From Candidatus Campbellbacteria bacterium (GTDB taxonomy: Bacteria > Patescibacteriota > Minisyncoccia > Phycocordibacterales > EsbW-18): a stretch of DNA of 64,000 nt. The notes beneath the pieces are model-generated. The model saw only the letters and a list, made by a program, of their open reading frames with translations, was not told where the DNA came from and ran no database searches. Position 1 is the first letter of the stretch, and every line of letters begins with the position of its first letter. Below, piece after piece: positions 3,172-48,008 of the stretch. Position numbers and translations under genes: made by a program. The stretch lies in assembly GCA_016699465.1 (NCBI GenBank), contig CP064977.1, positions 10,096 through 74,095 on the forward strand. Direction: 5' to 3'.

Positions 3172-4467
3172 ATGAAATCCTTTCCAACAATTATTCTCGG
3201 TATTTTCGGTTTCTTTATTGTTGCTGGTGTTATCGCAATTGCATCATTTGGTAAATTTGGTTCCTCGGGTTCAGGGGGTGTTGCGGCAAAGGCGGTGCTC
3301 TGGGGTACGCTTGATTCGGCCATGGTTGAAAAATCTATACAGCTTTTTAATGAAAAAAATGACAACATTCTTGAAGTTACGTACGTACAATTTTCTGAAA
3401 CAGAGTTTGATTCAAAACTTACAGAAGCACTGGCAGAAAATCGTGGTCCTGATGCCATTATCCTTACCCAAGAACGATTGTTGAGACACGAGAAAAAACT
3501 CTACCCAATTCCTTTTCAGAATGTTCCCGAACGTACGTTCCGTGATACCTTTGTTGAAGGGTCTGAATTATATATTGGCTCGACGGGGATCTACGCTCTT
3601 CCGCTGGTAATTGATCCAATGGTACTTTATTGGAACAGGACACTCTTTAATGCTGCTGGCATTGCGACTCCACCAACGCAGTGGGAGGATGTGATGGCGC
3701 TCGTGCCAAAATTAACAAAGGTGGATGCGTCACGTAATGTGCTTCAAAGTACGATTGCTCTTGGTGAGTATCAAAATATTTCCCACGCAAAAGAAATTCT
3801 TGCGCTTTTGATGATGCAGGCAGGCAATCCTATTACCATTCGTACACAAAATGGTTTTATGAGTAGTATTAGTGATCGGCTCGGTCTTCCTGAGGTTCCT
3901 GCAGATTCAGCTGTTCGTTTTTATACAGAATTTGCAAATCCGGTAAAACCATCCTATTCATGGAATCGTTCATTGGCATCATCACATGATGCGTTTGTGA
4001 GAGGAACTCTTGCCATGTACCTTGGTTTTTCAAGTGAACTTTTTGGTATACGAGAACAAAATCCAAATCTTAATTTTGATGTGACCCACATGCCACAGGT
4101 TCGTGATGCAATTCAAAAAAATACATTCGGTACTATCTATGCAATCGGTATTCTCAATCAATCGACAACAAAGGCAAATGCGTTTCAGGCGGTCTCTCTC
4201 TTGACGGGTGCAACTATGGCTCCGTTTTGGGTTGATGAGCTTGGGCTTCCGCCAGCACGACGTGATGCTTTATCACAGGTGCCTACGGATCCATATAAAG
4301 CTGTGTTTTATAGAGACGCACTCATTGCTCGAGGTTTTTTTGATCCAAATCCAATCCAGACAAATGCTCTCTTCGGGGCACTCATTGAAGATGTTACGTC
4401 GGGAAAGAGGTCGATAAGTGAGAGTGTGAATTTGGCAAATGGAAGAATGGAGCTGTTGTTGAAATAA
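3172..4467 (+). CDS. Membrane-anchored extracellular solute-binding-like protein (MalE-like fold) with no adjacent permease
   Basis: N-terminal TM helix, then a periplasmic domain with SBP-like segments (ILEVTYVQF, LAMYLGFSSE). Assignment is by overall resemblance only. Confidence 0.4.
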   Translation: MKSFPTIILGIFGFFIVAGVIAIASFGKFGSSGSGGVAAKAVLWGTLDSAMVEKSIQLFNEKNDNILEVTYVQFSETEFDSKLTEALAENRGPDAIILTQERLLRHEKKLYPIPFQNVPERTFRDTFVEGSELYIGSTGIYALPLVIDPMVLYWNRTLFNAAGIATPPTQWEDVMALVPKLTKVDASRNVLQSTIALGEYQNISHAKEILALLMMQAGNPITIRTQNGFMSSISDRLGLPEVPADSAVRFYTEFANPVKPSYSWNRSLASSHDAFVRGTLAMYLGFSSELFGIREQNPNLNFDVTHMPQVRDAIQKNTFGTIYAIGILNQSTTKANAFQAVSLLTGATMAPFWVDELGLPPARRDALSQVPTDPYKAVFYRDALIARGFFDPNPIQTNALFGALIEDVTSGKRSISESVNLANGRMELLLK

Positions 4468-4548: not shown

Positions 4549-4974
4549 ATGACACAGGAACAGAAACGAAATATGGTTGCACTCATGCTCTCTCTTGTGG
4601 TTGTACTCGTGCCTATATGTGTGTTTGCTGTTGATCCAGGCGGGCTTGTTCCATGTGAGGGTGCAACGTGTACGTTTAATGACCTTGTTCTTCTCGTAAA
4701 CAGAATTATTAATTTTCTTTTATATATCGTTGCATTTCCCGTTTCAGCAGGACTTTTCGCATGGGCGGGTATTTTGTACCTAACGGCTGCAGGTGATCAG
4801 GGTAAAATAAAGAAGGCGCACGATATATTTCAAAATGTCTTTTGGGGGCTTATACTGGCATTAGCAGGATTTTTAATTGTTAATTTCGTTACAATGACAC
4901 TTACGGGTACAGGATGGGCAGCAAATCCTTTTGCAGATCCAGTTCCAGCCGGAGTAAGTGGTGGAGCGCATTAA
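4549..4974 (+). CDS. VirB2/TrbC-like pilin family small membrane protein (CPR-type T4SS pilin-like), paralog 1 of 6
   Basis: Signal/TM segment, a second hydrophobic helix, and the shared motif FxWxGIxYxxAAGDxxKxKKxxxxxxxxxxGLILALxxF. Confidence 0.45.
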   Translation: MTQEQKRNMVALMLSLVVVLVPICVFAVDPGGLVPCEGATCTFNDLVLLVNRIINFLLYIVAFPVSAGLFAWAGILYLTAAGDQGKIKKAHDIFQNVFWGLILALAGFLIVNFVTMTLTGTGWAANPFADPVPAGVSGGAH

Positions 4975-4985
4975 ATCAATACCAC

Positions 4986-5405
4986 ATGAAAATATTTTTG
5001 AAAAAAAATAAAAAGATACTCGGGGCATTTTGTGCGTTATTTGTTTTAGTGCTTCCAGTTCTTCTTTTTGCAAATAGCGCTGGGACAGGGGCTACTATCA
5101 TAAACCCTCTTGCTCAACAGAATATAAACGACATTCCAACACTCATAACCGTTATTGTTGATGCAATGAAAAATATTGGGTACTTTGTTATCGTGTTCTT
5201 CATTATTTACTCTGGATTTTCTTTTGTGAAAGCACGCGGTGATGAAAAAGCTGTTACTGACGCAAAGAATATGCTCTTGTGGACAGTTGTTGGTGCGGCA
5301 GTTCTTCTTGGGGCACAAATTCTTTCAGATGTTATTAAAAATACTGTTACCCAAGTTGGTCAGACACGCAATGACGTGCCTATAACCCAACATGACACTG
5401 TATAA
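4986..5405 (+). CDS. VirB2/TrbC-like pilin family small membrane protein, paralog 2
   Basis: Internal ATG at 4986 (MKIFLKKNKK) gives signal peptide plus two hydrophobic helices and the motif GFSFVKARGDEKAVTDAKNML. The longer ORF start would overlap paralog 1. Confidence 0.45.
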   Translation: MKIFLKKNKKILGAFCALFVLVLPVLLFANSAGTGATIINPLAQQNINDIPTLITVIVDAMKNIGYFVIVFFIIYSGFSFVKARGDEKAVTDAKNMLLWTVVGAAVLLGAQILSDVIKNTVTQVGQTRNDVPITQHDTV

Positions 5406-5409
5406 ACCT

Positions 5410-5709
5410 ATGAAAAAAACACTACTATTTGTGTCGTTTTTGTCTGTACCTCTCGTTTCTTTTGCGCAGGCAACTGATTTGGCAAGTTTAATTGGTATCT
5501 TTATCGGACTTTTGAATCCGATCATCAGCTTGCTCACAGGACTCGCGGTGTTATTCTTTGTATGGGGTATTGTGAAGTATATTTATTATGCGGGAGACGA
5601 AAAGGCAAAGAAAAGCGGAAAGGACATTATGGGATATGGGATTCTTGCGCTGTTTGTTCTCTTTTCGTTTTGGGGACTTGTCCAGTTGCTTCATAATTCA
5701 ATATTTTAG
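5410..5709 (+). CDS. VirB2/TrbC-like pilin family small membrane protein, paralog 3
   Basis: Start at MKKTLLF. Motif FFVWGIVKYIYYAGDEKAKKSGKDIMGYGILALFVLF. Confidence 0.5.
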   Translation: MKKTLLFVSFLSVPLVSFAQATDLASLIGIFIGLLNPIISLLTGLAVLFFVWGIVKYIYYAGDEKAKKSGKDIMGYGILALFVLFSFWGLVQLLHNSIF

Positions 5710-5725
5710 TAATTTAATTTTACGT

Positions 5726-6148
5726 ATGCAAAAATATATTCCAATTAGTATTATTTTCTTATTTGCGCCTTTATTTGTGTTTGCCGCATCAATTACCTCC
5801 GTTATAGAGTTGTTTAGAGGGTGGATTAGTATACTTATTCCAATACTTGCGTCACTAGCGCTTCTTGTGTTTATGTGGGGTATTGTGAAGTACATTATGA
5901 GCGCTGGGGATGAAGATAAGGCAAAGGAGGGAAAGAGTATTATGATTTATGGGGTTATTGCGCTTTTTGTGATGTTTTCGGTTGCTGGTCTCATTGCGTT
6001 TATTGGAGAATCTTTTCAGATTGATCGAGGGGGTCCTATGACACCACCTGTGGTTGGAGGTTTGAGTGGCGGAAGTACTGGAGGTGGAAATACGGGCGGA
6101 AGTACAATCCCACCGAGAGGTGCTGGTGATATAGAGTATTTACCGTAG
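5726..6148 (+). CDS. VirB2/TrbC-like pilin family small membrane protein, paralog 4, with a Gly-rich C-terminal tail
   Basis: In-frame ATG at 5726 (MQKYIPIS). Motif VFMWGIVKYIMSAGDEDKAKEGKSIMIYGVIALFVMF. Tail GGLSGGSTGGGNTGGS. Confidence 0.5.
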   Translation: MQKYIPISIIFLFAPLFVFAASITSVIELFRGWISILIPILASLALLVFMWGIVKYIMSAGDEDKAKEGKSIMIYGVIALFVMFSVAGLIAFIGESFQIDRGGPMTPPVVGGLSGGSTGGGNTGGSTIPPRGAGDIEYLP

Positions 6149-6219
6149 TTTATTTTGAGTCATTGATGATATTATTAATACGTTAGTAGAGTTATTTAAA
6201 AAGTAAAATAAAACATAGT

Positions 6220-6567
6220 ATGAAAAAACTAGTACAAGGTATCGTTGTTGCATCGGCATTCGCACCATTGTTTGCGTTTGCACAATTTGGAGGCATCTCA
6301 AATATGCTTTCAGCTATCGGACGATTAATTTCAACAGCAACACCTATCGTTATTGGTCTTGCGCTCCTCGTGTTCTTCTGGGGATTGGTTAAGTTCATTA
6401 TATCTTCTGATGACGAAGACGCTCGAAAGAATGCAAAGGGTCTCATGATTGGTGGTATCATTGCACTCTTTGTGATGGTTGCAATCGTGGGTATTATCAA
6501 CTTCATTGCAGCACAGGTTGGTGTGACAACGGGCGGTAGCTTGCCGGTTCCTGGAGTACAAGGTTAA
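6220..6567 (+). CDS. VirB2/TrbC-like pilin family small membrane protein, paralog 5
   Basis: Motif VFFWGLVKFIISSDDEDARKNAKGLMIGGIIALFVMV. Signal peptide ends in AFAQ. Confidence 0.5.
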   Translation: MKKLVQGIVVASAFAPLFAFAQFGGISNMLSAIGRLISTATPIVIGLALLVFFWGLVKFIISSDDEDARKNAKGLMIGGIIALFVMVAIVGIINFIAAQVGVTTGGSLPVPGVQG

Positions 6568-6573
6568 TTCCGT

Positions 6574-6870
6574 ATGTCTCTTCAGGTTCTTCTTGCAAAT
6601 GGGTATCGTGTGATCCTTCAGCCGATTATTTTTCTGTTGTTTGCGGTCGCATTTGTTATATTCTTCTGGGGTATTGTTACGTCAATACGAGATTCAGAAG
6701 ATGAGAAGGAAAGAGCCAAGGGAAAACAAAGTATTCTCTGGGGAATTCTTGGAATGGTCATTATGATTTCAGTATTTGGAATTATACGGATTATTACGGG
6801 TACTATTGGTGTCGAAAATCCACCACAACCAAACGTGAATGTTGCGCCAAATGTGACAAATTCTCTATAG
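6574..6870 (+). CDS. VirB2/TrbC-like pilin family small membrane protein, paralog 6 (more divergent)
   Basis: Motif IFFWGIVTSIRDSEDEKERAKGKQSILWGILGMVIMI. Confidence 0.45.
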   Translation: MSLQVLLANGYRVILQPIIFLLFAVAFVIFFWGIVTSIRDSEDEKERAKGKQSILWGILGMVIMISVFGIIRIITGTIGVENPPQPNVNVAPNVTNSL

Positions 6871-6885: not shown

Positions 6886-6950
6886 AAAAAGGGCGCCCTT
6901 CGGGGCGCCCTTTGACGTTGGTTGTTTGTGCAACCACCAACGTCAACATC
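6886..6950. terminator. Two consecutive GC-rich hairpins forming a probable bidirectional terminator between the convergent pilin array and the SPFH cassette
   Basis: gggcgcc-cttc-ggggcgccc, then gacgttggt...accaacgtc, flanked by A and T runs. Confidence 0.55.
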
Positions 6951-6960: not shown

Positions 6961-7563
6961 TCAGGAAGACTTTTCGAGGATCATGAAGCTGATCCATTGA
7001 TTGTCCTCCGTCTCGTCTCGGTACCGCCCGATAAGCTTCACAGACGTACCTACGGGCGTGGGCATTTCCTCCCACGTCCCACGTCCCGGAAGCTTACCAT
7101 TGTTCTTCCACGTGCCGACTTTCTCAGCGCGATTCAGCGTGTACACTTGTTCCTCACGTGCCCCTCCGTAGAAGTGAAACACGGAGAAGTTTATGAGACC
7201 GCTGTTGAAGGCGTTGAACTGGGCGGGGCAACACGTGCCTCGAATTCCAGACATGCCTCCAGTGACGTCCTCCGGCTTGCTCCAGCAGAACTGGAGCTCG
7301 ACGGGGGCGGGTGCGGTGGTCTCACGCGTCCTCTCCCTCTTTTGGATGTAGTAGTTGAACACCATCCAGAGCACAGTCAACAGCGCAGCAGAAGCAAGTA
7401 AAGAAAAAAGAAAATTCCTTACCCACTTAGAGATTGGACGTGCACTCCTTTCGGAGGATGGCGTCTCTCTCTTGGTGACCACTACTCTCCGTCTTCCGAT
7501 GAGCGCGGAGATTCCGTACAGCAAGAGGCAGACAAGGAAAAAGACAACGGCGACGTACTTCAT
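6961..7563 (-). CDS. Hypothetical membrane protein, 4-nt overlap partner of the SPFH gene (not recognisably NfeD)
   Basis: Two N-terminal TM helices. High GC content and GC-rich codon usage, unlike the rest of the window. ATGA overlap with the upstream gene. Confidence 0.5.
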   Translation of the reverse strand: MKYVAVVFFLVCLLLYGISALIGRRRVVVTKRETPSSERSARPISKWVRNFLFSLLASAALLTVLWMVFNYYIQKRERTRETTAPAPVELQFCWSKPEDVTGGMSGIRGTCCPAQFNAFNSGLINFSVFHFYGGAREEQVYTLNRAEKVGTWKNNGKLPGRGTWEEMPTPVGTSVKLIGRYRDETEDNQWISFMILEKSS

Positions 7564-8678
7564 GACGCCACCTTCTTCTCGGGAGAGATTTGAAGGGCAA
7601 CCTGCCCTCGCTGGACAAGTGTTGTTACCTTCGACTTTTCACTCGCGAGTGCTTGAGCTTCGGCGACCTGCGCTCGTACGGCGACGAGAACGTTTGGGTC
7701 ACCACCGATGTTGCGGTGCGCTTCGGACGCGAAGTTCCAGAAGGCCGCTTCACCTTCTGCCTCGAGCTTGCGAGCTTCTAGTGCGCCCTTCGCGGCTTCC
7801 ACTGCTGCCTCTGCTTGCTTCTTGGCGGCAGTAATCTTCGCGTCACCTTGGAGCTTCGCGAGTTCGTTGGCTCGGTTTGCTTCTTCGATGTCACGAAAAT
7901 CCTTAGAGAGGTCGTAGTCATGGAGATATGCCACGACCATGCTCAGGCCGTACTCTGCAAGCTGTCTGTCAGCCTGTGTCTTCATCCGGTCGATGAGGTT
8001 TTCACCTCCACCGCCGGCTGAAGACCCCTTCTTCATGCCGGTGAGCTTCTTGTAGGTCAGTTTCTCGCCATGGGCATCTTCGCTTGACGCGAAGTCCATC
8101 ACGGCGTTGGCGACGATACCGTCAACGGCACGGAGGAAGTTACCACCGTACTCAAAGACGGGCTTGTAGACGTTCGTCACCTGCAAGATGACCATCACGA
8201 CAAAGTTGACTTGTGTCTGGTCACCACCAAGCTCAACGTCGGGGACAAACGAAGGGCGCGCGATCTTCCAACGAAGCTCGCGTACACTCTTTGAGTCCTC
8301 GTAGGTAACCCAGGACTCCACGTTTTCTCCGTCACCCAACTGGTCCTTGAGCCGTGCGATTGACTTCACTTGAAACTCGTAGACCTTACGGATGGGGTAG
8401 ATTCCCACCCAGAAGAGCCCAAACGTTCGTGCGAGAAACCTTGGCTTGTACGTTAGGTCCTCGCCAATCGCCCCAGTCTCCTCGTCGACTCGACGACCTT
8501 GGATGTTGCCAAGGTACCGGACGACCTTACTACCCGCGACGACAAAACGAATCGTCCCTTCCGGAACGCTCGTAAAGAATATGTCGTTGTCGCGGAACTT
8601 CAACATGGCAAGGAGGAACAGGAGTGTTCCTCCGCCGATGCACATCAGTCCGAACCACCACGAACTCACCCACTCCAT
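7560..8678 (-). CDS. SPFH/band-7 (flotillin-like) membrane protein
   Basis: N-terminal TM, then an SPFH core, then a C-terminal Ala/Glu-rich coiled coil (AEAAVEAAKGALEARKLEAEGEAA). Confidence 0.8.
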   Translation of the reverse strand: MEWVSSWWFGLMCIGGGTLLFLLAMLKFRDNDIFFTSVPEGTIRFVVAGSKVVRYLGNIQGRRVDEETGAIGEDLTYKPRFLARTFGLFWVGIYPIRKVYEFQVKSIARLKDQLGDGENVESWVTYEDSKSVRELRWKIARPSFVPDVELGGDQTQVNFVVMVILQVTNVYKPVFEYGGNFLRAVDGIVANAVMDFASSEDAHGEKLTYKKLTGMKKGSSAGGGGENLIDRMKTQADRQLAEYGLSMVVAYLHDYDLSKDFRDIEEANRANELAKLQGDAKITAAKKQAEAAVEAAKGALEARKLEAEGEAAFWNFASEAHRNIGGDPNVLVAVRAQVAEAQALASEKSKVTTLVQRGQVALQISPEKKVAS

Positions 8679-9074
8679 ACCGTTCTCCTTTCGAGAGGGA
8701 AGTTGTTTGGTTTCCTGATATATTCAATCCCTTGCGGGACGAATTTCCAAATTCATAATGTTAAAGTACTTCTGAGATATAGTATATCATAAAGAGTCAA
8801 AAAGTCAAGTGGTGCGTATTCAAAAATACGGCTTTGTAAGGCCATATTATGATGATTTGATCACGATGATTTTATGAGATAACTCGGTCATAAAGATTTC
8901 ATGGGAGGACTCGGCTAAGCGCTCACTCGCCGCCGCCGTTCCTTGTTCCGCTTAGCCATGCTCGCGCGACACCGCCTACTGACGGCGTATCCGCGCTCGC
9001 TTTCGAGTCCTCTCTCATCAACAATCAGCATATACAAAACAACACCATTTAAACGGTGTTGTTTTGTATATGTG

Positions 9075-9156
9075 TGGGCGAGAGAGGACTCGAACCTCCA
9101 AGTCTTGCGACACTAGCTCCTAAGGCTAGCGCGTCTACCAATTTCGCCACTCGCCC
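9075..9156 (-). tRNA. tRNA-Leu(TAG), type II with long variable arm
   Basis: Reverse complement folds manually into a cloverleaf with anticodon loop CTTAGGA and a 3-bp D-stem. Confidence 0.8.
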
Positions 9157-9272
9157 GTTAAGAATAACAATACTACAAGTCATCACGAGTTACTAAGGAT
9201 TTTTACGCATTCGCGAAAAAATCCAAAGTACTCGCGATCCCGGCTCGCGGTCGCTGTGCAACAACGCTGCGC

Positions 9273-9321
9273 CTTGGACCACATATGCAAACAGCCCGCA
9301 GGGGCTGTTTGCATATGTGGT
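9273..9321. terminator. Perfect 22-bp stem hairpin (loop gcag) abutting and overlapping the CCA end of tRNA-Lys
   Basis: ggaccacatatgcaaacagccc-gcag-gggctgtttgcatatgtggtcc, read directly. Confidence 0.6.
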
Positions 9322-9393
9322 CCACCCAGTAGGAATCGGACCTACGACCGTCTCCTTAAGAGGGAGCTGCTCTACCAGCTGAGCTATGGGTGG
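9318..9393 (-). tRNA. tRNA-Lys(CTT), CCA encoded
   Basis: Acceptor CCACCCA/TGGGTGG, D-arm GCTCAGCTGGTAGAGC, anticodon loop CTCTTAA, T-loop TCCGATT. Confidence 0.8.
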
Positions 9394-9751
9394 TGAAGTG
9401 AGGCTAAAGCAGAAGCCCCGTTTCTGCTTTACGCCGATCGAGCCATCCATATCGAGAGGGGCGAAGATATGGGTGGTGAAGTGAGGCTAACATAGAAGCC
9501 TCATTGCGTCATTGTACCAATAAAAAAGAATTTTTCTAGTGTGGGCCAGGTGGGACTCGGTCACGAATTACAAAGTATTTTTGTAAGAGACTCGACCAAG
9601 AACATTTTTACTCGCCGTCGCTCGTAAAAATTTCTCGGTCCTGCTCGCGCGACACCGCCTACTGACGGCGTATCCGCGCTCGCTTTCTCGTCCCATCTTG
9701 TACCTACAAAACAAAATCACCGAATGCTTTGCATCCGGTTCTTTGTTTTTG

Positions 9752-9832
9752 TGGGCCAGGTGGGACTCGAACCCACATCTCATACGAGACACGATCTTAA
9801 GTCGTGCGTGTATACCATTCCACCACTGGCCC
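9752..9832 (-). tRNA. tRNA-Leu(TAA), type II
   Basis: Anticodon stem-loop CACGA-CTTAAGA-TCGTG, 13-nt variable arm, T-arm GTGGG-TTCGAGT-CCCAC. Confidence 0.8.
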
Positions 9833-9869
9833 CTGGTCCGGCTTTCAATTCCTTTACTATAAATTTTCC

Positions 9870-9945
9870 TGGAGGCACGGGCGGGAATTGAACCCGCGCA
9901 ATAACGGTTTTGCAGACCGTCGCGTTACCACTTCGCCACCGTGCC
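9870..9945 (-). tRNA. tRNA-Cys(GCA), CCA encoded
   Basis: Anticodon stem-loop ACGGT-CTGCAAA-ACCGT, T-arm GCGGG-TTCAATT-CCCGC. Confidence 0.8.
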
Positions 9946-29612: not shown

Positions 29613-32600
29613 ATGAATTTCATTACTAACGCATCGTATAAAACATATCGAGGTATCGGTCTTACGTTCATGGCAGCGCTCCTTATTGTTGGAGTGTTTT
29701 CTTTTAATGCACTGAATGCAAATGCACTGGTCGCACCCCTGTGTGAACCAAATAACCCAGACATTATTTACAGTGATTCAGATACACAAGTAGAAGGTGG
29801 TGGTTCTGCAGTAGCTGTTACTCCTCACTCTGTGTGGCTATCAACAGTGTCAATTCCAGGAGCGACATGGGTTTGGGATGCGGACAAGACACCCGCGAAT
29901 GATACGGGTTCAAATCCAGCAGGAACACTTACTTTCACGAGAACGTTTACTATCACAGATACTCCAACAGGAGCAACTCTTGATATAACTACAGACAATA
30001 GTTACGTTGCAACAATAAATGGTCATGCGATTGGTTCTGATGGCACCTGGCAGTCGGTTGAATCATACGTCATTCCTGCGGGCGATCTTCTATCAGGTAC
30101 AAACACACTGACGATTGTAGCAACCAACGACGGACCAGATGGGCCGGGAAATCCCGCGGGCTTGCTCTACAAGCTCACCGTGAATAGCGAAGTGTGCCCA
30201 CCAGATCTTGATTTTGGTGATGCACCAGACCCAGGACACAGCTACCCAACACGGCTTGTTTCTGACGGGGCACGACACGTGATTGTTCCTGGCGTATACC
30301 TCGGAACTCTTATTGATGCAGAGACAGATGTAGTTCCCGGGTCAGACGCACTTGAAGATGATAACTTTGGTATTGATGACGAAGATGGGGTTCTCATTAC
30401 ATCCTCTCCTGTGGCATGCCCAACCAATCACGGGTGTATCCTTGTAACGGGCACGACAGCAACTATGGAAGTAACCGCATCAGTTGCAGGATACATTGAT
30501 GCATGGGTTGATTGGAGTACGAGCGGTGTCTTCGAACCAACCGATAGGATTTTCAACAACCAGCCTGTTGTTGCAGGTCTCAACACGCTTACATTCGCCG
30601 TTCCAATTGATGGAAATGCCTCCAACTATGTTGAAAGTTTCTTGCGAGTTCGATTCCACACAACAGATGGCGCACTTCTTCCAAGCGGGCTTGCTTCTGA
30701 TGGAGAAGTGGAAGATTACCAAATTGCGATTCGCAATTGGTGTGAACCTGGACAAGAACCGGGCACTGACCCAGGATATCCATACAGTTGTATTCCAGTT
30801 CAAGCTTGCCGCGTAGATGTTGTGAGTGCAGTCGGTGACCAAGGTGTTGGCAATGGAAACGCTGTTGCAGCATGGATTCACTCTGGCTGGACCACAGCAC
30901 TCAACAGTGTTGCCACATGGATTTGGGATTCATACCAGATACAAAATCTTGCAGTAGATGAATCAAAAACATTCACGAAAGACTTCTACGTTGACGGTCC
31001 TGTCAATGACGCAACACTAAACCTTGCAGCAGACAATCGCTACTGGGTTACTATCAACGGCAATCCAATCATCTCAAACACAGGTGAATTCAACTATGGA
31101 GCAGTCACTGGTCCTACTGATGTGACAACAAACGTTGTCTCAGGATGGAATACCATTGAATTTAAGATTGAAAACATTGCAAATGGTGAATTGAACCCAG
31201 AAATAAATCCAGCTGCTGGAATCTACCAGCTTGTGGTGAATGGACGTGAAGAAGGTGTGTGTGAGCAACCACCAGCTGACGACACAACACTCACCGTCAT
31301 CAAAATGACGAACCCTGACGGATCTACACAGCCTTTTGACTTCACACTCGATAGCGAGGCATTCGCGACTCTTCAGGACAACGACGACGGCTCAGGTGCA
31401 ATACCTGTTGCAACAGGAACACACCTTCTTGCAGAAATCGGTCTTCCGGATTGGGGTCTCACTGGTTGGGAGTGTCGCAACGACGCGGAACAACTTGTGG
31501 GAACGGATATGGGTGAAAGTGGCATTGAGCTCGACTTCTCACACGGCGACGACATCACGTGTACATTCACAAACACAAAAGATGAAGCACCTTTCTGTGA
31601 AGGAAATCTCATCAAAAACGGAAGTTTTGAGGCACCGATTGTTACTGACAACGGAGGCGACTGGCAACTTTTTGCAAACCTTACTCCGGGACTTGAGTGG
31701 ATTGCAAAGCTGGTAGACACAGAAACAGATGCTCCTCTAGAGATTCAGGCAGGTTACTCAGGGTGGGTTGCGCAGAATGGTGACCAATATGCAGAACTCG
31801 ACTCAACAGCACCAACAACGATTTCTCAAAATGTTGTGACAACTCCAGGACAAGCATACAAATTAACCTACTGGCGTGCGACACGTCCCGGAACGCTTCC
31901 AGAAAACAACGCAGTATGGGTCACACAAAATGGCGAACAAATTGATAGTAACGTTTTTGGGGTAACATCAAGTAATCCTGACTGGTATATGTCTCCAGAA
32001 GTTACTTTTATTGCAACATCATCATTGACAAACCTTGCATTTAAAGATATTGGTTCGTCGGCAGATTCTCTTGGAACATTTATTGACTCAGTTTGTTTGG
32101 TTCCAACGAAGAACCCAGAACCAAAGACATGTAGCCTTGACGTCGTAAGTGATACAACAAACGTTGTTGTTGAAACAGGACTTAATGCAGTTGCAACATG
32201 GGTACACCCAGGATGGACAACATCAATTCCTGGTGCAACATGGATTTGGAAATCACTCAACGTTGAGAATCCTACAAGTGACGAAATATACACGTTCACA
32301 AAGTATTTCAACTGGACAGATACAACAAAGCTCGTAAGTGCAAATCTTGATCTTGCAACAGATAACTCATACCGCGTATGGGTCAATGATCAAGGAGTAA
32401 GTACAAGTACAGATGAAAATAACTTTAGCGCAGCAGATTCATACGATGTGAAATCACTTCTCGTGAATGGTACAAACAAGATTACTGTTGAAGTAAAGAA
32501 CTGGGCATTGGGTGGTTCTACTGCAGAAACAAATCCTGCCGGAGCACTCTACAAGCTTACACTTACTGGTGAAGATGGATCGTGTACGCCAGATCCACTT

Positions 32601-33221
32601 CCACAGTGTTCAGACGGTATCGACAACGACGAAGATGGATTCACTGACTGGCCATCAGACACAACATGCGGCGGGCCATCAGACAATGATGAGCAGGGTG
32701 GTGGTGGTGACGAACAACGCGGAACAATCATCATTAAAAAAGAGGTAACTGATGGTAGTGACAGTGATGTAAACTTCTTCTTCAACGCAACATGGTTGGG
32801 AGAAGAGGGAACATTCAGTCTCACTGGTGGCGATGAAAAGTCCTACGTTCTTGCCCCTGGTGAATACGGTGTTGATGAGGCTCAAAAGCTTGGTTGGACT
32901 CTCACGAATGAATCATGTGTGTCTGACAACCCAACTCCAACAAAGGTATTCTCTGAGATACAAACACAAATCACATCAGACATTACTCTCCACGATGGTG
33001 AAGTGGTGACATGCACCTTCATAAACGATCAAGATAAGAAAAATAATGGAGATGATGATGGTGGAGGACAAAGCAGTGGTGGTGGAGGACGCAGTCACCG
33101 AAACAGGTCTTCAAGCACAGGAGAAGTGCTTGGTGAACAAGTGCTCGGCGATCAGGTTGCCCTTGCCCCTGTTGGAGCACCAAACACAGGTTTTGGAGGA
33201 CTCAAGATGTGTTTCTACTAA
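29613..33221 (+). CDS. Large secreted cell-surface protein (1202 aa) with signal peptide, three copies of a roughly 130-aa repeat, a GEVED domain, and prealbumin/Cna-B-like beta domains
   Basis: Three repeats share W...GW....A.WIW....E..TFT..F....A.L.LA.DN.Y...ING....NPAG..Y.L.V. DFGDAPDPGHSYPT...SDGEVEDYQIAI is the GEVED signature. The C-terminus carries APNTG, 10 residues from the end. Confidence 0.8.
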   Translation: MNFITNASYKTYRGIGLTFMAALLIVGVFSFNALNANALVAPLCEPNNPDIIYSDSDTQVEGGGSAVAVTPHSVWLSTVSIPGATWVWDADKTPANDTGSNPAGTLTFTRTFTITDTPTGATLDITTDNSYVATINGHAIGSDGTWQSVESYVIPAGDLLSGTNTLTIVATNDGPDGPGNPAGLLYKLTVNSEVCPPDLDFGDAPDPGHSYPTRLVSDGARHVIVPGVYLGTLIDAETDVVPGSDALEDDNFGIDDEDGVLITSSPVACPTNHGCILVTGTTATMEVTASVAGYIDAWVDWSTSGVFEPTDRIFNNQPVVAGLNTLTFAVPIDGNASNYVESFLRVRFHTTDGALLPSGLASDGEVEDYQIAIRNWCEPGQEPGTDPGYPYSCIPVQACRVDVVSAVGDQGVGNGNAVAAWIHSGWTTALNSVATWIWDSYQIQNLAVDESKTFTKDFYVDGPVNDATLNLAADNRYWVTINGNPIISNTGEFNYGAVTGPTDVTTNVVSGWNTIEFKIENIANGELNPEINPAAGIYQLVVNGREEGVCEQPPADDTTLTVIKMTNPDGSTQPFDFTLDSEAFATLQDNDDGSGAIPVATGTHLLAEIGLPDWGLTGWECRNDAEQLVGTDMGESGIELDFSHGDDITCTFTNTKDEAPFCEGNLIKNGSFEAPIVTDNGGDWQLFANLTPGLEWIAKLVDTETDAPLEIQAGYSGWVAQNGDQYAELDSTAPTTISQNVVTTPGQAYKLTYWRATRPGTLPENNAVWVTQNGEQIDSNVFGVTSSNPDWYMSPEVTFIATSSLTNLAFKDIGSSADSLGTFIDSVCLVPTKNPEPKTCSLDVVSDTTNVVVETGLNAVATWVHPGWTTSIPGATWIWKSLNVENPTSDEIYTFTKYFNWTDTTKLVSANLDLATDNSYRVWVNDQGVSTSTDENNFSAADSYDVKSLLVNGTNKITVEVKNWALGGSTAETNPAGALYKLTLTGEDGSCTPDPLPQCSDGIDNDEDGFTDWPSDTTCGGPSDNDEQGGGGDEQRGTIIIKKEVTDGSDSDVNFFFNATWLGEEGTFSLTGGDEKSYVLAPGEYGVDEAQKLGWTLTNESCVSDNPTPTKVFSEIQTQITSDITLHDGEVVTCTFINDQDKKNNGDDDGGGQSSGGGGRSHRNRSSSTGEVLGEQVLGDQVALAPVGAPNTGFGGLKMCFY

Positions 33222-33372
33222 AAATGTAAGATACGAAGCACGGCCTCCGAAAGGGAAGCCTCGCTTCTAGAAATCAAACAAAACCCGCCATCTAGGCGGG
33301 TTTTGTGCTGTAGATACAGTATTTGGACGGGATTGACATAAACTCTAAAAAGAGTTATCATATATAACGTAT

Positions 33373-34023
33373 ATGATTTCTTTTACTCTAGAAACACACA
33401 CAAAACAACTACTCGTATCTGTAGGAATTCTAGTTCTCGTTGTTGGGTGTGGAATTCTCCTTGTCTCAAAACAAGGTGTGCAGGAGGGCCGTTTCTCAAA
33501 AAGTCTTACGAGCGATCGTGCTACATCTTCACGACCAATGTTTGATCCAGCACAACCACTTACTGAATCAGTGCCAGTACGTATCCGTATACCAAAAATA
33601 TATGTAGATACAAATTTTGTTCCGCTTGGATTACAAGACACTGGAGAAATTGAAATTCCAAAAGGATATACAGAAGTGGGATGGTATACGTATGGTCCAA
33701 CTCCCGGTGAATTAGGACCAGCAGTTGTTCTTGGGCACGTTGATTCATATGAAGGACCTGGTGTGTTTATGTCACTCGGACAACTCACACAGGGTGAGTA
33801 TGTGTACATTGATCGCGCTGATGGAACGACAGCACTATTTCGTGTAACAGCACTTGAACGATACAATAGGAATGAGTTTCCAACGAAGGATGTCTATGGT
33901 GATATAGATTTTTCTGGGTTGCGTCTTATCACGTGTTCAGGGACCTACAATCATGAGACACACGAATATGACCGAGTACTCGTGGTGTATGCGACACTTG
34001 TTGATAACGATGGTACGAAGTAG
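33373..34023 (+). CDS. Class F-like sortase (transpeptidase)
   Basis: N-terminal TM, catalytic His in VVLGHVDS, and the sortase TLxTC motif as LRLITCSG. Confidence 0.8.
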   Translation: MISFTLETHTKQLLVSVGILVLVVGCGILLVSKQGVQEGRFSKSLTSDRATSSRPMFDPAQPLTESVPVRIRIPKIYVDTNFVPLGLQDTGEIEIPKGYTEVGWYTYGPTPGELGPAVVLGHVDSYEGPGVFMSLGQLTQGEYVYIDRADGTTALFRVTALERYNRNEFPTKDVYGDIDFSGLRLITCSGTYNHETHEYDRVLVVYATLVDNDGTK

Positions 34024-36483: not shown

Positions 36484-37095
36484 CTACTGTAACTTTATAA
36501 CTTTAAATGAACCTGTGTTATTTCTATCTCTGCCAGAATAGTATTCTGTTTCAAGGCTATTTTCATCAGTAAGTTTGGCTGTCGCAGATCCATAGTGAAT
36601 ATGCATAGTCTCAGGCGCACTATCCTTTGGGACATTCATATACTGATAATGAATTCTGGCTGTATCAAATTGATCCACATTCATTGATGTCTCAAAACTA
36701 TGAGATTCCGATGTCTCTGTTTCTAGGTAAATACTGACATGTGTCCATGTTTGTTTAATACAAAACTTTTTTGTTGGTATCGGTCCTTTTGAGTAAACAG
36801 AAGCCGAGTTTATTTCACCCGACCATGAGCCATCAACTATAGGCGTTCTAATTCCAAGTAGCTTACGAATATGTTTGTTTCTCCAAAGCTTAGTATCAAA
36901 CCATTTATACAGAATTCCGTAGAACCCTATTACTGATGGCGCTTCTATCCACCAAGGCAGGGATATTACGTTCTTGGAGAATAAATACAGCCCCCAAGCA
37001 AGCAATATTGCAAATACTGCCAAGTAGAAAGATGCCTTTTTATGTTCTTCTGAATTTATTGAATATGGGTGCATATAGATTATCTTTCGTACCAA
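36484..37095 (-). CDS. 2TM beta-strand-rich effector-like membrane protein (S-2TMbeta-like), overlapping the SMODS gene by 16 nt
   Basis: Two N-terminal TM helices (FYLAVFAILLAWGLYLF, WWIEAPSVIGFYGILYKWF), then a beta-rich soluble domain. Translational coupling with the upstream cyclase. Confidence 0.5.
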   Translation of the reverse strand: MVRKIIYMHPYSINSEEHKKASFYLAVFAILLAWGLYLFSKNVISLPWWIEAPSVIGFYGILYKWFDTKLWRNKHIRKLLGIRTPIVDGSWSGEINSASVYSKGPIPTKKFCIKQTWTHVSIYLETETSESHSFETSMNVDQFDTARIHYQYMNVPKDSAPETMHIHYGSATAKLTDENSLETEYYSGRDRNNTGSFKVIKLQ

Positions 37096-37997
37096 TTATC
37101 CCAAAGATCAACAAGTGCAACTATTGTCGCTACAGCATCGTCAGTATTCCATTGCTCTCCTGACGTGCCAAAAAGTGGTATAAGACCATTTTGACACATG
37201 AAATCGTCAATTGGGTTAGTGTATAAATAATTTAAAACAGATCTTGTTGACGCAGATAAATCGTTAGAGAAACAAGAGTTTGGTACATTGTAAATTAAGC
37301 TTTGTAAAAAATACGATGGTGCCTTTTCTTTATCTAGAAGACCTTTGTCAACAAGATAATTTCGAGCGTTTTTTATAATTCTTACAACCTGCTTAAATTG
37401 ATTTTGAGTATTTTGATGTTTTTGTGCACCATTTTTGAAATGATGTTCAGGGTAATTTACAATGGCTCTATTGGTTGTTCGGTGATAAAATTTTACACCT
37501 TCCTCTGAACTATGTGTGTCAGATCCGAAAAAATAGTCATACTTACGATAATTAATTACTGGTACCACATCCGCTTTTAAGCGACCCGATGTTGGTAGAA
37601 TTTTAATAGATTTATTTCCGCTTGTATCAACATTAGCTACAGCATAGTAGCTTTCGAGTGCCGAAATAACATCTCGTCGCAAATCTTGCCAATCGTAAAT
37701 AGCGCTACTGTATGCTTGATCATGAGCAGTTTTTTGTTCATAAGGAAGTTCATGTGCATTATGACCAAACGTAGTTGTAAGCTCAACGACAACATCAACA
37801 TCGCTATCCGCCCTAATATTTGTGTCGTTTTTATAAGAACCTTGTAAATAAATTTTTACAGAACCACTACTAATACGATCTTTCAGTGGCGAAAGATCGT
37901 GAGTAAGTGCACAACGTATAGATTCGTGAGTTGTTTTAGATGACACAGTAGCACCTTGGTTCGACCATGTTTCTAATTGAGAAAGAGGTATAGACAT
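37080..37997 (-). CDS. SMODS-domain nucleotidyltransferase (CD-NTase-like cyclic oligonucleotide synthase)
   Basis: Pol-beta NTase core YLQGSYKNDTNIRADSDVDVVVEL (GS...DxD), a third acidic residue in KADVVPV, and SMODS-like KSIKILPTS and QVVRIIKNAR. Confidence 0.65.
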   Translation of the reverse strand: MSIPLSQLETWSNQGATVSSKTTHESIRCALTHDLSPLKDRISSGSVKIYLQGSYKNDTNIRADSDVDVVVELTTTFGHNAHELPYEQKTAHDQAYSSAIYDWQDLRRDVISALESYYAVANVDTSGNKSIKILPTSGRLKADVVPVINYRKYDYFFGSDTHSSEEGVKFYHRTTNRAIVNYPEHHFKNGAQKHQNTQNQFKQVVRIIKNARNYLVDKGLLDKEKAPSYFLQSLIYNVPNSCFSNDLSASTRSVLNYLYTNPIDDFMCQNGLIPLFGTSGEQWNTDDAVATIVALVDLWDNWYER

Positions 37998-38240: not shown

Positions 38241-38879
38241 TTAACTTTTAATAATACCCACAACCTTTCCGCTTATCTGGAAGTCATCACCCTCGTGAAT
38301 AAATATTGGTAGATATTTTTCAGTTGAGTCGGCTTCTAGAATAATCATTCTATTCACCTTGTCTTCTCTGTATCGCTTGATCGTAGCAAGACCGTCTATA
38401 ACAGCGACAACTATGTCAGTATTTTTATAAATCTTGTATTCACTATCAACCAAAACAAAATCTCCACTTTCAATCGTCTTTCCATCAATTTCTGCTTTGT
38501 TCATACTATCGCCGTCAGCGATAAGTGCATACAAATTACTTTTGTTGCGTGGAAGAAGTGAAGAAGAAATTTTCAAATACTGGTCTATATTTTGCTCTGC
38601 GAATATTGTGGCAGGACCACAGTTGGCAGACCCAACAACAGGGAGGGAGTAGATCGGACTTGCTGATGCTTTTGCATAACCTCTTTTGACGAGCTTTATA
38701 ACCCCAGCTTCAAGATTCATTTGGATCAATCCTCCCTCAGCAAGCTTCTGAAGGTGGTACTTGGCAGTCTGGGGTTTTCCCTCTGCACCAACCATTTCAG
38801 CTATCTTTCTAAGGCTGTATGACCCAAAATCCTCGTGTGTCGCAATAAGATCTAAAAGTTGCTTTTGTATGATATGCAT
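38241..38879 (-). CDS. lexA: LexA-like repressor (winged-HTH plus S24 peptidase), possibly a phage CI-type repressor
   Basis: N-terminal LexA DNA-binding-domain-like segment (LTQKQLLDLI...YHLQKLAEGGLI). A C-terminal Ser-Lys dyad (GDSMNKA, ATIKRY). Confidence 0.8.
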   Translation of the reverse strand: MHIIQKQLLDLIATHEDFGSYSLRKIAEMVGAEGKPQTAKYHLQKLAEGGLIQMNLEAGVIKLVKRGYAKASASPIYSLPVVGSANCGPATIFAEQNIDQYLKISSSLLPRNKSNLYALIADGDSMNKAEIDGKTIESGDFVLVDSEYKIYKNTDIVVAVIDGLATIKRYREDKVNRMIILEADSTEKYLPIFIHEGDDFQISGKVVGIIKS

Positions 38880-38957
38880 AGGGGTAGTATAGCATGTTCA
38901 AAGTAAAGTGTAAATAAAGATTTGACATTTTACACCCCCTCTTGATAGAATAGAGAC

Positions 38958-39371
38958 ATGGAGCAGAAATTAGTATTGCACGAAGCGATTCACGAACCCA
39001 AATTGGGTGATATTATCATCGAAATAACCGATGTTCAATTTCACACCAATGCTCGTGTGACCACTTCCCAAGCAAATACTATTGATCGCTCCGTGCAGTC
39101 AAATAAGCCTGGTCGAGTATTTTCTCCAATGAGCCAAGGCTCGTTGAAAATAATAGAAAACAATACATTGTTGTTTTCTGGTCCATTTTTTGATTACGAA
39201 CAACTCAAAATTCTTGTTACAAAATATAATCAACAAGGAAAAAGAGTTTTTATTAAAAAACCAACAGCTAAAATACCATTACTTCCTGGTAAAGATACTG
39301 TTGAATTCGTAAACAGTATAAAGGGACAAAGAATTTTAAGGAGATTAGAAAAACAGGAAAAGATTGCTTAA
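38958..39371 (+). CDS. Hypothetical protein, divergent from the lexA-like gene
   Basis: ORF only. No recognisable motif. Confidence 0.35.
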   Translation: MEQKLVLHEAIHEPKLGDIIIEITDVQFHTNARVTTSQANTIDRSVQSNKPGRVFSPMSQGSLKIIENNTLLFSGPFFDYEQLKILVTKYNQQGKRVFIKKPTAKIPLLPGKDTVEFVNSIKGQRILRRLEKQEKIA

Positions 39372-39533
39372 AACAATAATGCGTAGTAACAAGCGAATAG
39401 TGTAGCTCCCTAGGACATGCCTATTCCGCGCAAAAAATAGCAGAAGCTTCGAACTTCTTTTATTTTGTGTGTGGAATAGGCTTTTTCTATACCTGTGTCC
39501 ATACATTTTATTAAAAATTATTAATAAAATGCT

Positions 39534-40808
39534 ATGCAAAAAATACAATGGCGTGCAGAAATTCGAGAGGTTAAAGATCTTGTTCCTTGGAAAGAAAATC
39601 CGAGAAAAATAACAAAGGTCGCTCTTGAGAAATTAAAAGACAAAATCATTCAAAGTGGTTTTCATAGTGTGATCGTTGTTGATACCGACAATACTATTTT
39701 GTCAGGTAACCAAAGAAAAGTAGCTCTCACTCAATTAGGAATCAAGGAAGTCCCTGTTCTCGTTCCTGATCGTACACTCACTAATGATGAGCGTACCAAG
39801 ATTGCACTTGAAAGCAATGTGAACGATGGCGAGTGGGATTTTGAAAAGCTTAAGTCGTTTGATTTAGATCTCATAAAATTTGCAGGATTTTCTGACATGG
39901 AAATCGCAAAGTTTTGGGATGAAGACAAAGATACAAAAGACGATAAGTTTGACGTCGACAAGGAAATCAAAAAGATAAAGACACCTGTGGTGCAAAAAGG
40001 TGATCTCATTATCATGGGTGATCACAAGTTACTCTGTGCCAGTTCAACAGACATACACGCCGTACAAAAACTATTCGGAGAGCATAAGGCGACGGCTATC
40101 TATAGCGATCCACCTTTTAATATCGGGCTATCGTATGACAAAGGCGTTGGTAACACCAGAAACTATGGTGGATCTTTCGACGACAACCAGTCTCCAAAAG
40201 AGTACGTTGAATTCATTCGACAAGTATTGAAGTCTGCACTTTCTGTATCTGTTGAAGACTTGCATGTCGCATTCTGGGCGGATGAAGCCTGGGTGTGGGT
40301 TTTTCAAACGCTCTACATGGAACTGGGTATTAAGAACAGACGCTTGAATGTCTGGGTGAAGAACAATTCATCACCGACCCCTACGGTTGCTTTCAACAAA
40401 TGTACAGAGTTTTGTGTCTATGGAAGTAAAGGATCTCCATACTTGTCTGACTTGGTAAAAAATCTCAATGAGATACAAAACAAAGATCTAAGCACAGGAA
40501 ACCAATTGCTTGAAGAAATATCAAACCTCTGGGCAACGAAGCGACTTCCATCGAATCAAATGGAGCACCCAACAAGCAAGAATCCAGAATTACATCATAA
40601 GTTCATTATGCGTTGCACTAAGCCTGGCGACATTATTTTTGATGCCTTCTCGGGATCTGCTAGCACCATGATCTGTGCGGAACAATTGGGTCGCAAGGTG
40701 TACTCCTTAGAAATCGAGCCAGTATTTTGTGATTTGGCAATTCGCCGTTATGAAAAACTGACTGGTCGGAAAGCAGAGATAATCAAAAACTTCTATGAAG
40801 AAAAATAA
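39534..40808 (+). CDS. ParB-like nuclease domain fused to a beta-class N6-adenine/N4-cytosine DNA methyltransferase
   Basis: ParB N-terminal motif SGNQRKVALTQLG. Catalytic motif IV SDPPFNIG precedes SAM motif I FDAFSGSAST (beta order). Such fusions are typical of phages and plasmids. Confidence 0.8.
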   Translation: MQKIQWRAEIREVKDLVPWKENPRKITKVALEKLKDKIIQSGFHSVIVVDTDNTILSGNQRKVALTQLGIKEVPVLVPDRTLTNDERTKIALESNVNDGEWDFEKLKSFDLDLIKFAGFSDMEIAKFWDEDKDTKDDKFDVDKEIKKIKTPVVQKGDLIIMGDHKLLCASSTDIHAVQKLFGEHKATAIYSDPPFNIGLSYDKGVGNTRNYGGSFDDNQSPKEYVEFIRQVLKSALSVSVEDLHVAFWADEAWVWVFQTLYMELGIKNRRLNVWVKNNSSPTPTVAFNKCTEFCVYGSKGSPYLSDLVKNLNEIQNKDLSTGNQLLEEISNLWATKRLPSNQMEHPTSKNPELHHKFIMRCTKPGDIIFDAFSGSASTMICAEQLGRKVYSLEIEPVFCDLAIRRYEKLTGRKAEIIKNFYEEK

Positions 40809-41202
40809 ACTCCAAGATCATTTTTTTGAAGAACTGACAAAAGTACCGATTGTACAAGTTGCTTGTGAAAAAACAGGTGTCTCTCGCAATAGTGTATACC
40901 GTTGGCGGAAAGACGATGCTTCATTCTGCAAGAAAATGGATCAAGCACTTAAAGACGGTGTGGCGTTGGTGAACGATATGAGTGAGACACAGCTCCTCAC
41001 CTTGATTAAGGAAAAGAATTATCCCGCCATCAGTTTCTGGCTCCGTCACCGCAATGACAACTACAAAAATAAACTCGAAATCACGACAAAAGAAGAAAGC
41101 GAAGCACTCACACCGTCACAGGCAAAGATCGTCCGCAACGCTCTTAAACTCGCTTCTATTACCAAGAGCAAATCCATTAAAAGAATTAACAAAGAAAAAT
41201 AA
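40795..41202 (+). CDS. Putative terminase small subunit (HTH protein immediately upstream of TerL)
   Basis: HTH-like VACEKTGVSRNSVYRWRK. The call rests on size and position. Confidence 0.45.
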   Translation: MKKNKLQDHFFEELTKVPIVQVACEKTGVSRNSVYRWRKDDASFCKKMDQALKDGVALVNDMSETQLLTLIKEKNYPAISFWLRHRNDNYKNKLEITTKEESEALTPSQAKIVRNALKLASITKSKSIKRINKEK

Positions 41203-41204
41203 TT

Positions 41205-43635: not shown

Positions 43636-43989
43636 AAACTTTGGACGGTTTTGTTATGAAGGATCGTATAGGTAGCAAAAAGCTCCTAGCCAGATCCGAT
43701 ATACCCCGTGAGGTATACCCATACCCGTTTCCAGATATGACCGTCCAAAGTAGACTCTGACTAGGAGTTCTTTACTTTGGACGGATTTTGCGACCATATC
43801 CTGTAATTGCTTACAGGGGTTAGGTCTCTGTATTAACTTGTAAATGAATAATAACATTTTTGACCCTATTATTCAATTTAAATTCTATCGCAAACCCCTA
43901 GTTTTGCTAAGGCTAGTACGCGAGTACGCTACGTTTTTTTAGTTCTGCATAGACTTAGCAAGACTAGTGTTCTCTGTCATTAATATAGT

Positions 43990-47597: not shown

Positions 47598-47606
47598 GAA
47601 AATATA

Positions 47607-47640
47607 GTTAGAAAAAAGAACGACAATTGTCGTTCTTTTT
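47607..47640. terminator. Rho-independent terminator after the P-type ATPase
   Basis: aaaaaagaacgacaattgtcgttcttttttctg. Confidence 0.6.
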
Positions 47641-47737
47641 TCTGCAACATGTAGGTTTGTGGGTCGCACTTAGTACATAACTAAATGGGTCATCAAAACT
47701 AACAGTCATAGACAAAGTAAGGATTAATTAACTAGGT

Positions 47738-47960
47738 ATGCGAACAAAACTTGAAGAAGAGATCAAGCGATTTAACTGACAGCAAAGACTTGCAACCAAA
47801 AGAACGCCAAAGTATTCAATCAACGAAGATGCCGTGAATATTAGAGAATATGCCAAGTATGTACTTAGAGGAGGGTACTCCACTGGAGAAGCATGAACTG
47901 ATTGGACATTTGAGGAGCAGGTTAATACTGAAAGAGAAGAAAATCACCTTGGTAGTGTAA
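47738..47960 (+). pseudogene. Degraded C-terminal fragment of a second serine recombinase gene, with stops and frameshifts
   Basis: Nucleotide and translated similarity to the last roughly 75 codons of the 43990-45309 recombinase (atatgccaagtatgtacttagaggagg versus atatgcgaagtatgtcttaaaagaagg; ...aaagagaagaaaatcacc versus aataaaaagattactttg). In-frame stops are present. Confidence 0.6.
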
Positions 47961-47979
47961 TGGAGAAATTAAGTAGTTG

Positions 47980-48008
47980 ACTTCCAAAACCATATACCCT
48001 ATACTATA
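47980..48008. promoter_or_regulatory. Candidate CsoR operator, a perfect palindrome ccatataccctata-c-tatagggtatatgg
   Basis: 14-bp perfect arms, immediately upstream of the second csoR. Confidence 0.55.

Follow-up and report, generated by a model that had tools for sequence, protein, structure and literature searches.

What is the role of six related pilin-like genes that stand in a row, apart from any recognisable gene for a type IV secretion system (T4SS)? This question is raised by positions 4549-6870 of a 64,000-nucleotide stretch of Candidatus Campbellbacteria bacterium DNA (contig CP064977.1, positions 10,096-74,095), hereafter called the window, where six open reading frames (ORFs), P1 to P6, follow one another in tandem on the plus strand and encode proteins of 141, 139, 99, 140, 115 and 98 aa. 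An initial annotation of this DNA had described six consecutive ORFs of 98-141 aa here, and they are present as described. Judged by profile similarity, the locus is a set of six paralogues from the VirB2/TrbC pilin superfamily (PF18895) that diverged long ago. The interpretation favoured here, with a probability of roughly 60%, is that the six proteins would act in one assembly, a pilus or conduit dependent on a T4SS, as subunits that are not redundant.

Family identity of the encoded proteins

All six proteins match the Pfam family PF18895 (T4SS_pilin) with E-values from 4e-5 to 7e-10, and five of them score above the gathering cut-off of 26.6 bits (34.9 bits for P2, 39.4 for P3, 37.9 for P4, 34.2 for P5 and 30.9 for P6). 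P1 falls slightly below it at 24.0 bits (E = 4e-5), and its orthologues likewise give weak matches. The matches span nearly the whole 71-position profile, charged loop included. P2 in addition matches PF04956 (TrbC/VirB2) over profile positions 1-94 of 98 with 30.6 bits (E = 3.9e-7), above the cut-off of 27.9 bits; in the same Pfam scan P1 reached only 13.7 bits and P3-P6 gave no PF04956 match. These hidden Markov model (HMM) results uphold the initial designation of the proteins as VirB2/TrbC-like pilins. In NCBIfam, NF045849 (Mbov_0395 family pilin-like) is the top match of five proteins and the second of P2; all six scores stay under the 40-bit cut-off, the highest being the 35.2 bits of P6. 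The family is large: a profile search against 1.84 billion cluster representatives retrieved 58,736 proteins when the limit was E ≤ 0.001 and 11,433 when it was E ≤ 1e-10.

The relationship to VirB2 itself was addressed by comparing alignments with hhalign. Alignment A4 comprises VirB2 of Agrobacterium together with five genes annotated as TrbC/VirB2 that lie between virB1 and virB3 on MPF-T plasmids, A5 comprises P2 and its orthologues (type 2), and A3 is a broad alignment dominated by the other types. A5 aligns to A4 with E = 1.7e-4 and a probability of 49% over 64 columns, with the whole mature domain in register, and to A3 with a probability of 98.9% (E = 1e-17). As A5 matches both, and A3 shows no direct VirB2 signal, the link to VirB2 is taken to be real but transitive, passing through paralogue 2. 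The proteins are unlike type IV pilus pilins in that they have two transmembrane (TM) helices and, where a leader is present, one of the signal peptidase I type; the class III signal G|(F/M)TLxE of type IV pilins is absent from all six and no type IV pilus Pfam family was matched.

Architecture of the six paralogues

Hydropathy analysis shows an N-terminal signal-like hydrophobic stretch followed by two TM stretches in P1-P5, and only the latter two in P6. The signal/TM segment that the initial annotation ascribed to all six therefore holds for P1-P5 and fails for P6. P5 was modelled with AlphaFold2 from 106 aligned homologues (mean pLDDT 79.6), and the model shows the expected pilin hairpin: the predicted leader helices occupy residues 2-22, a helix at 26-61 is connected by a loop at 62-65 to a second helix at 66-100, and the tail is of low confidence and devoid of secondary structure. 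Between the two hairpin helices runs a short charged loop, (A/S)GDE-K. P16 and A21, where the leader ends, are nearly invariant across the 106 sequences, and the -3/-1 rule predicts that signal peptidase probably cuts behind the P-x-x-x-(F)-A motif conserved here.

The coordinates of the individual ORFs are those of the most plausible start codons. P1 (4549-4974, +) has a signal peptide, a pair of cysteines and then the two-helix hairpin. The Cys pair, (L/I)(V/I)PC-x(3-9)-C-x-F, is located at the mature N-terminus and is retained by all orthologues, among them those in the related loci L001, L002, L007, L009 and L011. P2 (4986-5405, +) is the TrbC/VirB2-like member that bridges the two families. 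P3 (5410-5709, +) is the shortest leader-bearing type and terminates in ...SIF; an alternative ATG start at 5392 would extend it to 105 aa. P4 (5726-6148, +) carries a Gly/Pro-rich C-terminal tail, and the Gly-rich tail noted for this paralogue in the initial annotation is seen as GGLSGGSTGGGNTGGST. P5 (6220-6567, +) represents the most conserved type. P6 (6574-6870, +) is leaderless and starts where the mature N-terminus of the others begins; the in-frame TAA found 6 nt upstream leaves no room for a longer ORF. This is not peculiar to the window, as about 56 of 62 related arrays end in a leaderless gene, where a gene was called leaderless if its profile match begins past the leader columns and no later than the first 2-24 residues of the longest ORF possible.

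The paralogues are highly divergent. P3-P6 share 33-48% identity among themselves and P1 and P2 only 17-30% with the rest, and a single residue, one Asp in the loop, is invariant in all six. The motif FxWG(I/L)VK(Y/F)I..GDE, which had been attributed to the entire set, is thus a feature of P3-P6 and does not extend to P1 and P2.

Conservation and selection

The array belongs to a conserved block, gyrA-(methyltransferase)-SBP-pilin array, in which SBP denotes a solute-binding protein. The block was found in all of eight related loci and 55 species-representative genomes from Campbell-, Zambryski-, Taylor-, Wolfe-, Nomura- and Kaiserbacteria, all of the class Paceibacteria. A local HMM survey showed that the related arrays contain between four and nine pilin genes, with a mode of six, and that these are always on a single strand. 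For each paralogue of the window the best match in other arrays is the gene at the corresponding position, with 63-83% identity to L001 compared to 17-48% between paralogues, and this is so across genomes whose GyrA proteins are only about 61-65% identical. The duplications are therefore old.

Substitution rates were estimated against L011, the closest relative with DNA available (dS 0.46-0.82). The ratio of nonsynonymous to synonymous substitutions (dN/dS) is 0.125 for P1, 0.171 for P2, 0.107 for P3, 0.077 for P4, 0.133 for P5 and 0.157 for P6, and 0.127 for the concatenated genes; for the neighbouring GyrA, SBP and methyltransferase genes it is 0.028, 0.047 and 0.076, respectively. Values so far below 1 against orthologues mean that all six are real coding genes, and all six paralogues are under purifying selection. 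The constraint is uneven along the proteins. In the comparison with L011 the TM helices differ at 4-7% of positions and the signal peptide and mature N-terminal segment at 23-24%, and in the comparison with L001 the C-terminal tails differ at 64%. Repeats shared between paralogues at the DNA level have an identity of only 60-77% and hence give no sign of recent gene conversion within the array.

Recent duplication is seen only in type 4, namely in L002 (9105-9889) and in L009 and L010 (9103-9869 each), and this is the sole place where the arrays look evolutionarily active. The duplicates L009_4 and L009_5 have an identical core of 50 residues and different N- and C-terminal ends. Taken over the genomes compared, the orthologous six-type set appears as an old, stable and selectively maintained one that is upheld in at least 55 Paceibacteria species.

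Natural multi-repeat fusions

The top-scoring members of the family are not single pilins. Among the best 150 matches of the profile search, the highest-scoring proteins are 200-930 aa long and contain two to eight pilin repeats. Four sequences that were read through (P0241, P0242, P0250 and P0276) are 333-820 aa in length and carry three to eight hairpin repeats behind one signal peptide. No mention of such polypilins was found in the available portions of PMC10633639 and PMC12102498 or in the other literature cited here. In the Rosetta-stone sense, natural fusions of several repeats hint that different pilin units serve one assembly.

Operon structure and the upstream solute-binding protein

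The intergenic gaps within the array measure 4-71 nt. A terminator scan found no convincing site between the six pilin genes, its sole match being a weak 5-pair one inside P1. Downstream of P6 lies a strong G+C-rich hairpin at 6888-6913, AAAGGGCGCCC-TTCG-GGGCGCCCTTT, with 11 pairs of which eight are G-C. It is listed without a strand of its own, and the terminator-like site was called on the minus strand; an A-run precedes it and TTT follows it, and it was also picked up as an inverted repeat. The hairpin separates P6 from convergent minus-strand genes, a second one lies at 6912-6946, and the hairpin at 6888-6913 is likely to be a terminator. The short gaps, the lack of a convincing internal terminator and the strong hairpin after P6 make the six genes an apparent single operon, and a chromosomal one. 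The window as a whole is ordinary chromosome, encoding GyrA, IF-2, ClpB, MurJ, LepA, a class I tRNA synthetase, FtsZ/FtsA and 12 tRNAs. P3, P5 and P6 are identical to the database proteins IPJ70_00070, IPJ70_00080 and IPJ70_00085 of Candidatus Campbellbacteria bacterium.

The gene that precedes the array on the same strand (3172-4467, +), 81 nt upstream, encodes a membrane-anchored SBP homologue of 431 aa (SBP_bac_8, E = 5.6e-19; SBP_bac_1, E = 8e-15) of a distant MalE/oligosaccharide-binding type. In every related locus for which upstream sequence is available an SBP gene is found directly 5' of the array, and nothing is inserted before the first pilin gene. The methyltransferase and the genes downstream of the array vary between loci and the SBP adjacency persists. 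An ORF scan of the 64-kb window found no ABC permease or ATPase partner for the SBP. From its position the gene is possibly part of the same operon as the pilins, and the sugar-type SBP may work together with them as an adhesin or substrate receptor. However, since gyrA is also conserved upstream, the adjacency may be inherited synteny without functional meaning.

Proposed function and alternative explanations

It is proposed that P1-P5 would be made with a Sec-type signal peptide that is then cut, and that P6, being leaderless, would have to reach the membrane by another way. The hairpin subunits would collect in a membrane pool, from which a Patescibacteria T4SS of the monoderm conjugation type, with VirB4-, VirB3- and VirB6-like components encoded elsewhere in the genome, would take them and assemble from them a single structure, pilus-like or a conduit, directed at the host cell. 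The proteins may form a surface filament. The individual conservation of the paralogues together with the natural fusions makes it most likely that the six play different, non-redundant parts, such as major, minor, tip and base subunits. VirB4 is present in 10 of the 10 Campbellbacteria assemblies seen in Table S1 of a published survey, and a pilin gene lies near virB4 in 1,135 of the 1,948 Patescibacteria assemblies that have both (PMC12102498).

Several points count against this proposal. A scan of every ORF of at least 200 aa, excluding shadows of opposite-strand genes, found no VirB4, VirB3, VirB6 or VirD4 in the 64-kb window, nor any type IV pilus ATPase among the ORFs scanned, which bears out the initial report that VirB4, VirD4 and such an ATPase are absent here. 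Around the arrays of about 60 related loci no VirB4-like ORF was found within 10 kb (unannotated ORFs of at least 450 aa were considered, a Walker A motif occurred in only one and ten were tested by Pfam), nor any VirB3, VirB6 or VirD4, and in L012 none of the four was detected over 19 kb upstream of the array. To our knowledge no pilus has ever been observed on these organisms. The family assignment has weak points too, as the name of PF18895 is itself a computational annotation, and hhalign gives a probability of only 0.8% for A3 against A4, meaning that types 3-6 lack direct profile similarity to bona fide VirB2. Solved pilins were retrieved neither by sequence-profile nor by fold search against the PDB, and since a helical hairpin is too simple to be diagnostic, such searches cannot discriminate.

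Could the array encode something other than a filament? A membrane complex of fixed stoichiometry with about 12 TM helices, acting as a channel or permease that is fed by the SBP and does not require VirB4, would explain why an SBP gene without an ABC partner in the window directly precedes the array in every locus examined and is never separated from it by an insertion. It would also fit the modal number of six genes with each position conserved, the resemblance of the 3-8-repeat fusions to polytopic membrane proteins and the lack of any virB4 linkage in this clade, and the closest small-fold PDB match is the ring-forming hairpin of ATP-synthase subunit c, albeit not a significant one. This explanation, the main rival, is nevertheless considered rather unlikely: through paralogue 2 the family is homologous to VirB2/TrbC, the equivalent array of Southlakia epibionticum is situated inside a T4SS cluster (PMC10633639), the SBP adjacency may, as stated above, be mere synteny, and a permease would hardly account for the long and variable external tails, rich in Gly/Pro. 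More doubtful still is the notion that the SBP and about six specialised hairpin subunits, the last of them leaderless, linked to gyrA and set apart from virB4, form a hetero-oligomeric conduit of fixed composition, either pilus or pore, that imports host-derived molecules with the SBP as its receptor or tip adhesin. If it were true, the pilin fold would have been re-used for nutrient import instead of secretion or conjugation, and the polypilins with three to eight repeats would be single-chain versions of the same assembly.

The initial annotation saw in the divergent paralogues a sign of antigenic or functional diversification of a surface filament, and the former idea has also been raised in a survey of Patescibacteria (PMC12102498). 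An antigenic or host-range cassette, in which the paralogues are alternative and fast-diversifying versions of one surface subunit, agrees with their mutual identity of only 17-48%, with a copy number that ranges from four to nine between species, with the recent type-4 duplicates in L002 and L009/L010, of which L009_4 and L009_5 combine the same core with different ends, and with the fact that the presumably exposed N-terminal segments and C-terminal tails change fastest. It is contradicted by the positional orthologue that every paralogue has across genomes with GyrA about 61-65% identical, by gene-wide dN/dS values of 0.08-0.17 and by the lack of any DNA-level trace of recent gene conversion. 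Against it also stand the one apparent operon that includes all six genes, with neither an internal terminator nor an invertible element, and the covalent multi-repeat fusions, which imply that the units are used jointly. Paralogues that serve as interchangeable antigenic variants are thus unlikely and the cassette as a whole is improbable; functional diversification, the other half of the original suggestion, is still plausible. The assumption that these are not pilins at all but unrelated holins, bacteriocin-immunity or generic two-TM proteins, which match the profiles by hydrophobic composition, is hardly credible. It can draw on weak sub-threshold matches to many membrane-protein families and on a PDB profile search that returned only spurious TM matches next to an uninformative fold search. 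Yet five of the six proteins pass the PF18895 cut-off over a near-full profile that includes the charged loop, the TrbC match of P2 exceeds its cut-off over 94 of 98 positions, and Pfam labels the orthologues throughout as the same family. A better match to a holin or another small-membrane-protein family, which the initial annotation had named as the observation that would overturn a pilin identity, was sought in Pfam, NCBIfam and PHROGs and was not found; the PHROGs scan gave just three weak matches, each to a family without known function and not to holins, and Pfam likewise gave no holin family.

Other features of the window and of related loci

The array is followed by a convergent gene pair on the minus strand (6961-8678) that encodes a 200-aa protein without a family match and a 372-aa protein with weak similarity to SPFH/Band_7, and its G+C content is raised to 0.49-0.51 from about 0.42. 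A Band_7/SPFH gene occupies the corresponding place in L013, L025, L029, L037 and L056, and L005 has there a gene pair of similar sizes without family match. Between the SPFH gene and infB lie four tRNA genes (9074-9945, -) for Leu-TAG, Lys-CTT, Leu-TAA and Cys-GCA.

At 29613-34023 (+) a sortase gene follows the gene for a surface protein of 1202 aa, whose domains are GEVED, SpaA-type prealbumin-fold and DUF642. As a Gram-positive-style sortase substrate this protein makes a second candidate surface structure in the window. L012 likewise has a sortase and a 1161-aa protein upstream of the array. At 36484-37997 (-) a Cap15 effector, consisting of TM helices and a cyclic-dinucleotide receptor domain (E = 1.6e-25), adjoins a 305-aa protein with weak SMODS/nucleotidyltransferase matches. 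The two form a probable anti-phage pair of the cyclic-oligonucleotide-based anti-phage signalling system (CBASS), in which the 305-aa protein is likely to be the cyclase.

The region at 38241-45309 is of low G+C content (0.35-0.42) and encodes an S24 peptidase/repressor-like protein, an N6/N4 DNA methylase, a terminase large subunit, a DUF5048 protein and a large serine recombinase; from this gene content it looks like a prophage or mobile element. A LOOT RNA (Rfam RF03000, 80 bits) is located inside it at 43698-43826 (-). Next follows at 45663-54853 (+) a low-G+C copper or heavy-metal resistance island, as suggested by genes for two P-type ATPases (one with an HMA domain), a DUF305 protein, a multicopper oxidase, an HMA-DsbD_2 membrane protein and a cupredoxin-like protein. 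The island was probably acquired, and a tRNA-Ser gene lies after it at 54992-55081.

Two proteins from related loci may be added. In L062, a Patescibacteria metagenome-assembled genome, a 913-aa protein resembling the major vault protein (4-2742, -) contains a major-vault-protein shoulder domain (E = 2e-22), vault repeats and SPFH. A conserved 430-aa DUF8128 (PF26449) protein is encoded in L001 (596-1891), L007 (1404-2696) and L011 (1822-3111), where it sits between a sigma-70-like factor and YceG, upstream of the equivalent of the window start in these relatives; it gave no match in the Pfam copy used or in the PDB.

Comparison with known systems

VirB2-like pilin arrays have already been published and no new kind of system is revealed here. 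In S. epibionticum a series of predicted pilins is encoded inside an essential T4SS cluster (Wang et al. 2023, PMC10633639), and according to a later review they number six (PMC12857230). Gram-positive T4SSs normally have no pilus (Wang et al. 2023, PMC10633639). The array of S. epibionticum ML1 (Saccharimonadia; SEML1_0006-0019) resembles that of Campbellbacteria in being chromosomal and not on a mobile element. However, its pilins lie inside a T4SS cluster and have been shown to be essential, whereas the Campbellbacteria array is tied to gyrA and an SBP gene, with any VirB4 at least 19 kb away upstream and at least 57 kb downstream. The locus bears on how the Patescibacteria, or candidate phyla radiation (CPR), draw on their hosts; the single species tested requires both its T4SS and its pilins. 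The initial annotation assumed that such filaments mediate host attachment or DNA uptake in CPR bacteria, but this conflates two systems: the literature assigns these roles to type IV pili, and the role of the T4SS and its pilins has been called completely unknown (PMC11665869).

A search of 3,035 Patescibacteria genomes with PF04956 and PF18895 yielded 441 VirB2 arrays of 2-11 genes in 383 assemblies, with a mean identity of about 25% and a maximum of 54% (Quinonero-Coronel et al. 2025, PMC12102498). The present array falls within the definition used there, which is at least two PF04956/PF18895 genes of low mutual identity in tandem or with one non-pilin gene between them, and it has the same Pfam models, tandem genes and low identity (17-48%). 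It differs in that it resides in a Paceibacteria block without virB4 linkage. The available portions of that survey contain no mention of positional orthology, purifying selection, an SBP companion or a leaderless last gene. In the same source the antigenic or host-range variation suggested for Patescibacteria arrays is also the reading given to the VirB2 clusters of Bartonella and Anaplasma phagocytophilum (PMC12102498). Those clusters likewise comprise several divergent tandem copies in a host-dependent bacterium, but the Campbellbacteria copies are old orthologues under purifying selection.

VirB2, the Agrobacterium T-pilin, and TrbC of RP4 share with the present proteins the signal peptide (P6 being leaderless), two hydrophobic helices and the short polar loop. 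They are, however, single-copy genes in the virB1-virB2-virB3-virB4 operons of diderm bacteria, whereas Campbellbacteria have six copies without adjacent T4SS genes in a monoderm-type cell, and types 3-6 are not directly recognisable as VirB2. Mbov_0395 (NF045849) from integrative and conjugative elements of Mycoplasma is also a small hairpin protein and stems from the T4SS of a wall-less or monoderm bacterium, but it is a single gene on a mobile element as opposed to a chromosomal array of six. Compared to these systems the additions made here are modest and, as far as the consulted parts of the cited literature extend, not found there: a stable orthologous six-type set, its separation from virB4, a constant SBP neighbour and a leaderless terminal gene. 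For tests in tractable relatives the locus offers as candidates the SBP, the subunit without a leader and the one with the Cys pair. Overall, an old and stable set of six subunits that is separate from virB4, paired with an SBP and mostly closed by a leaderless gene suggests a multi-subunit structure with a division of labour rather than antigenic variation.

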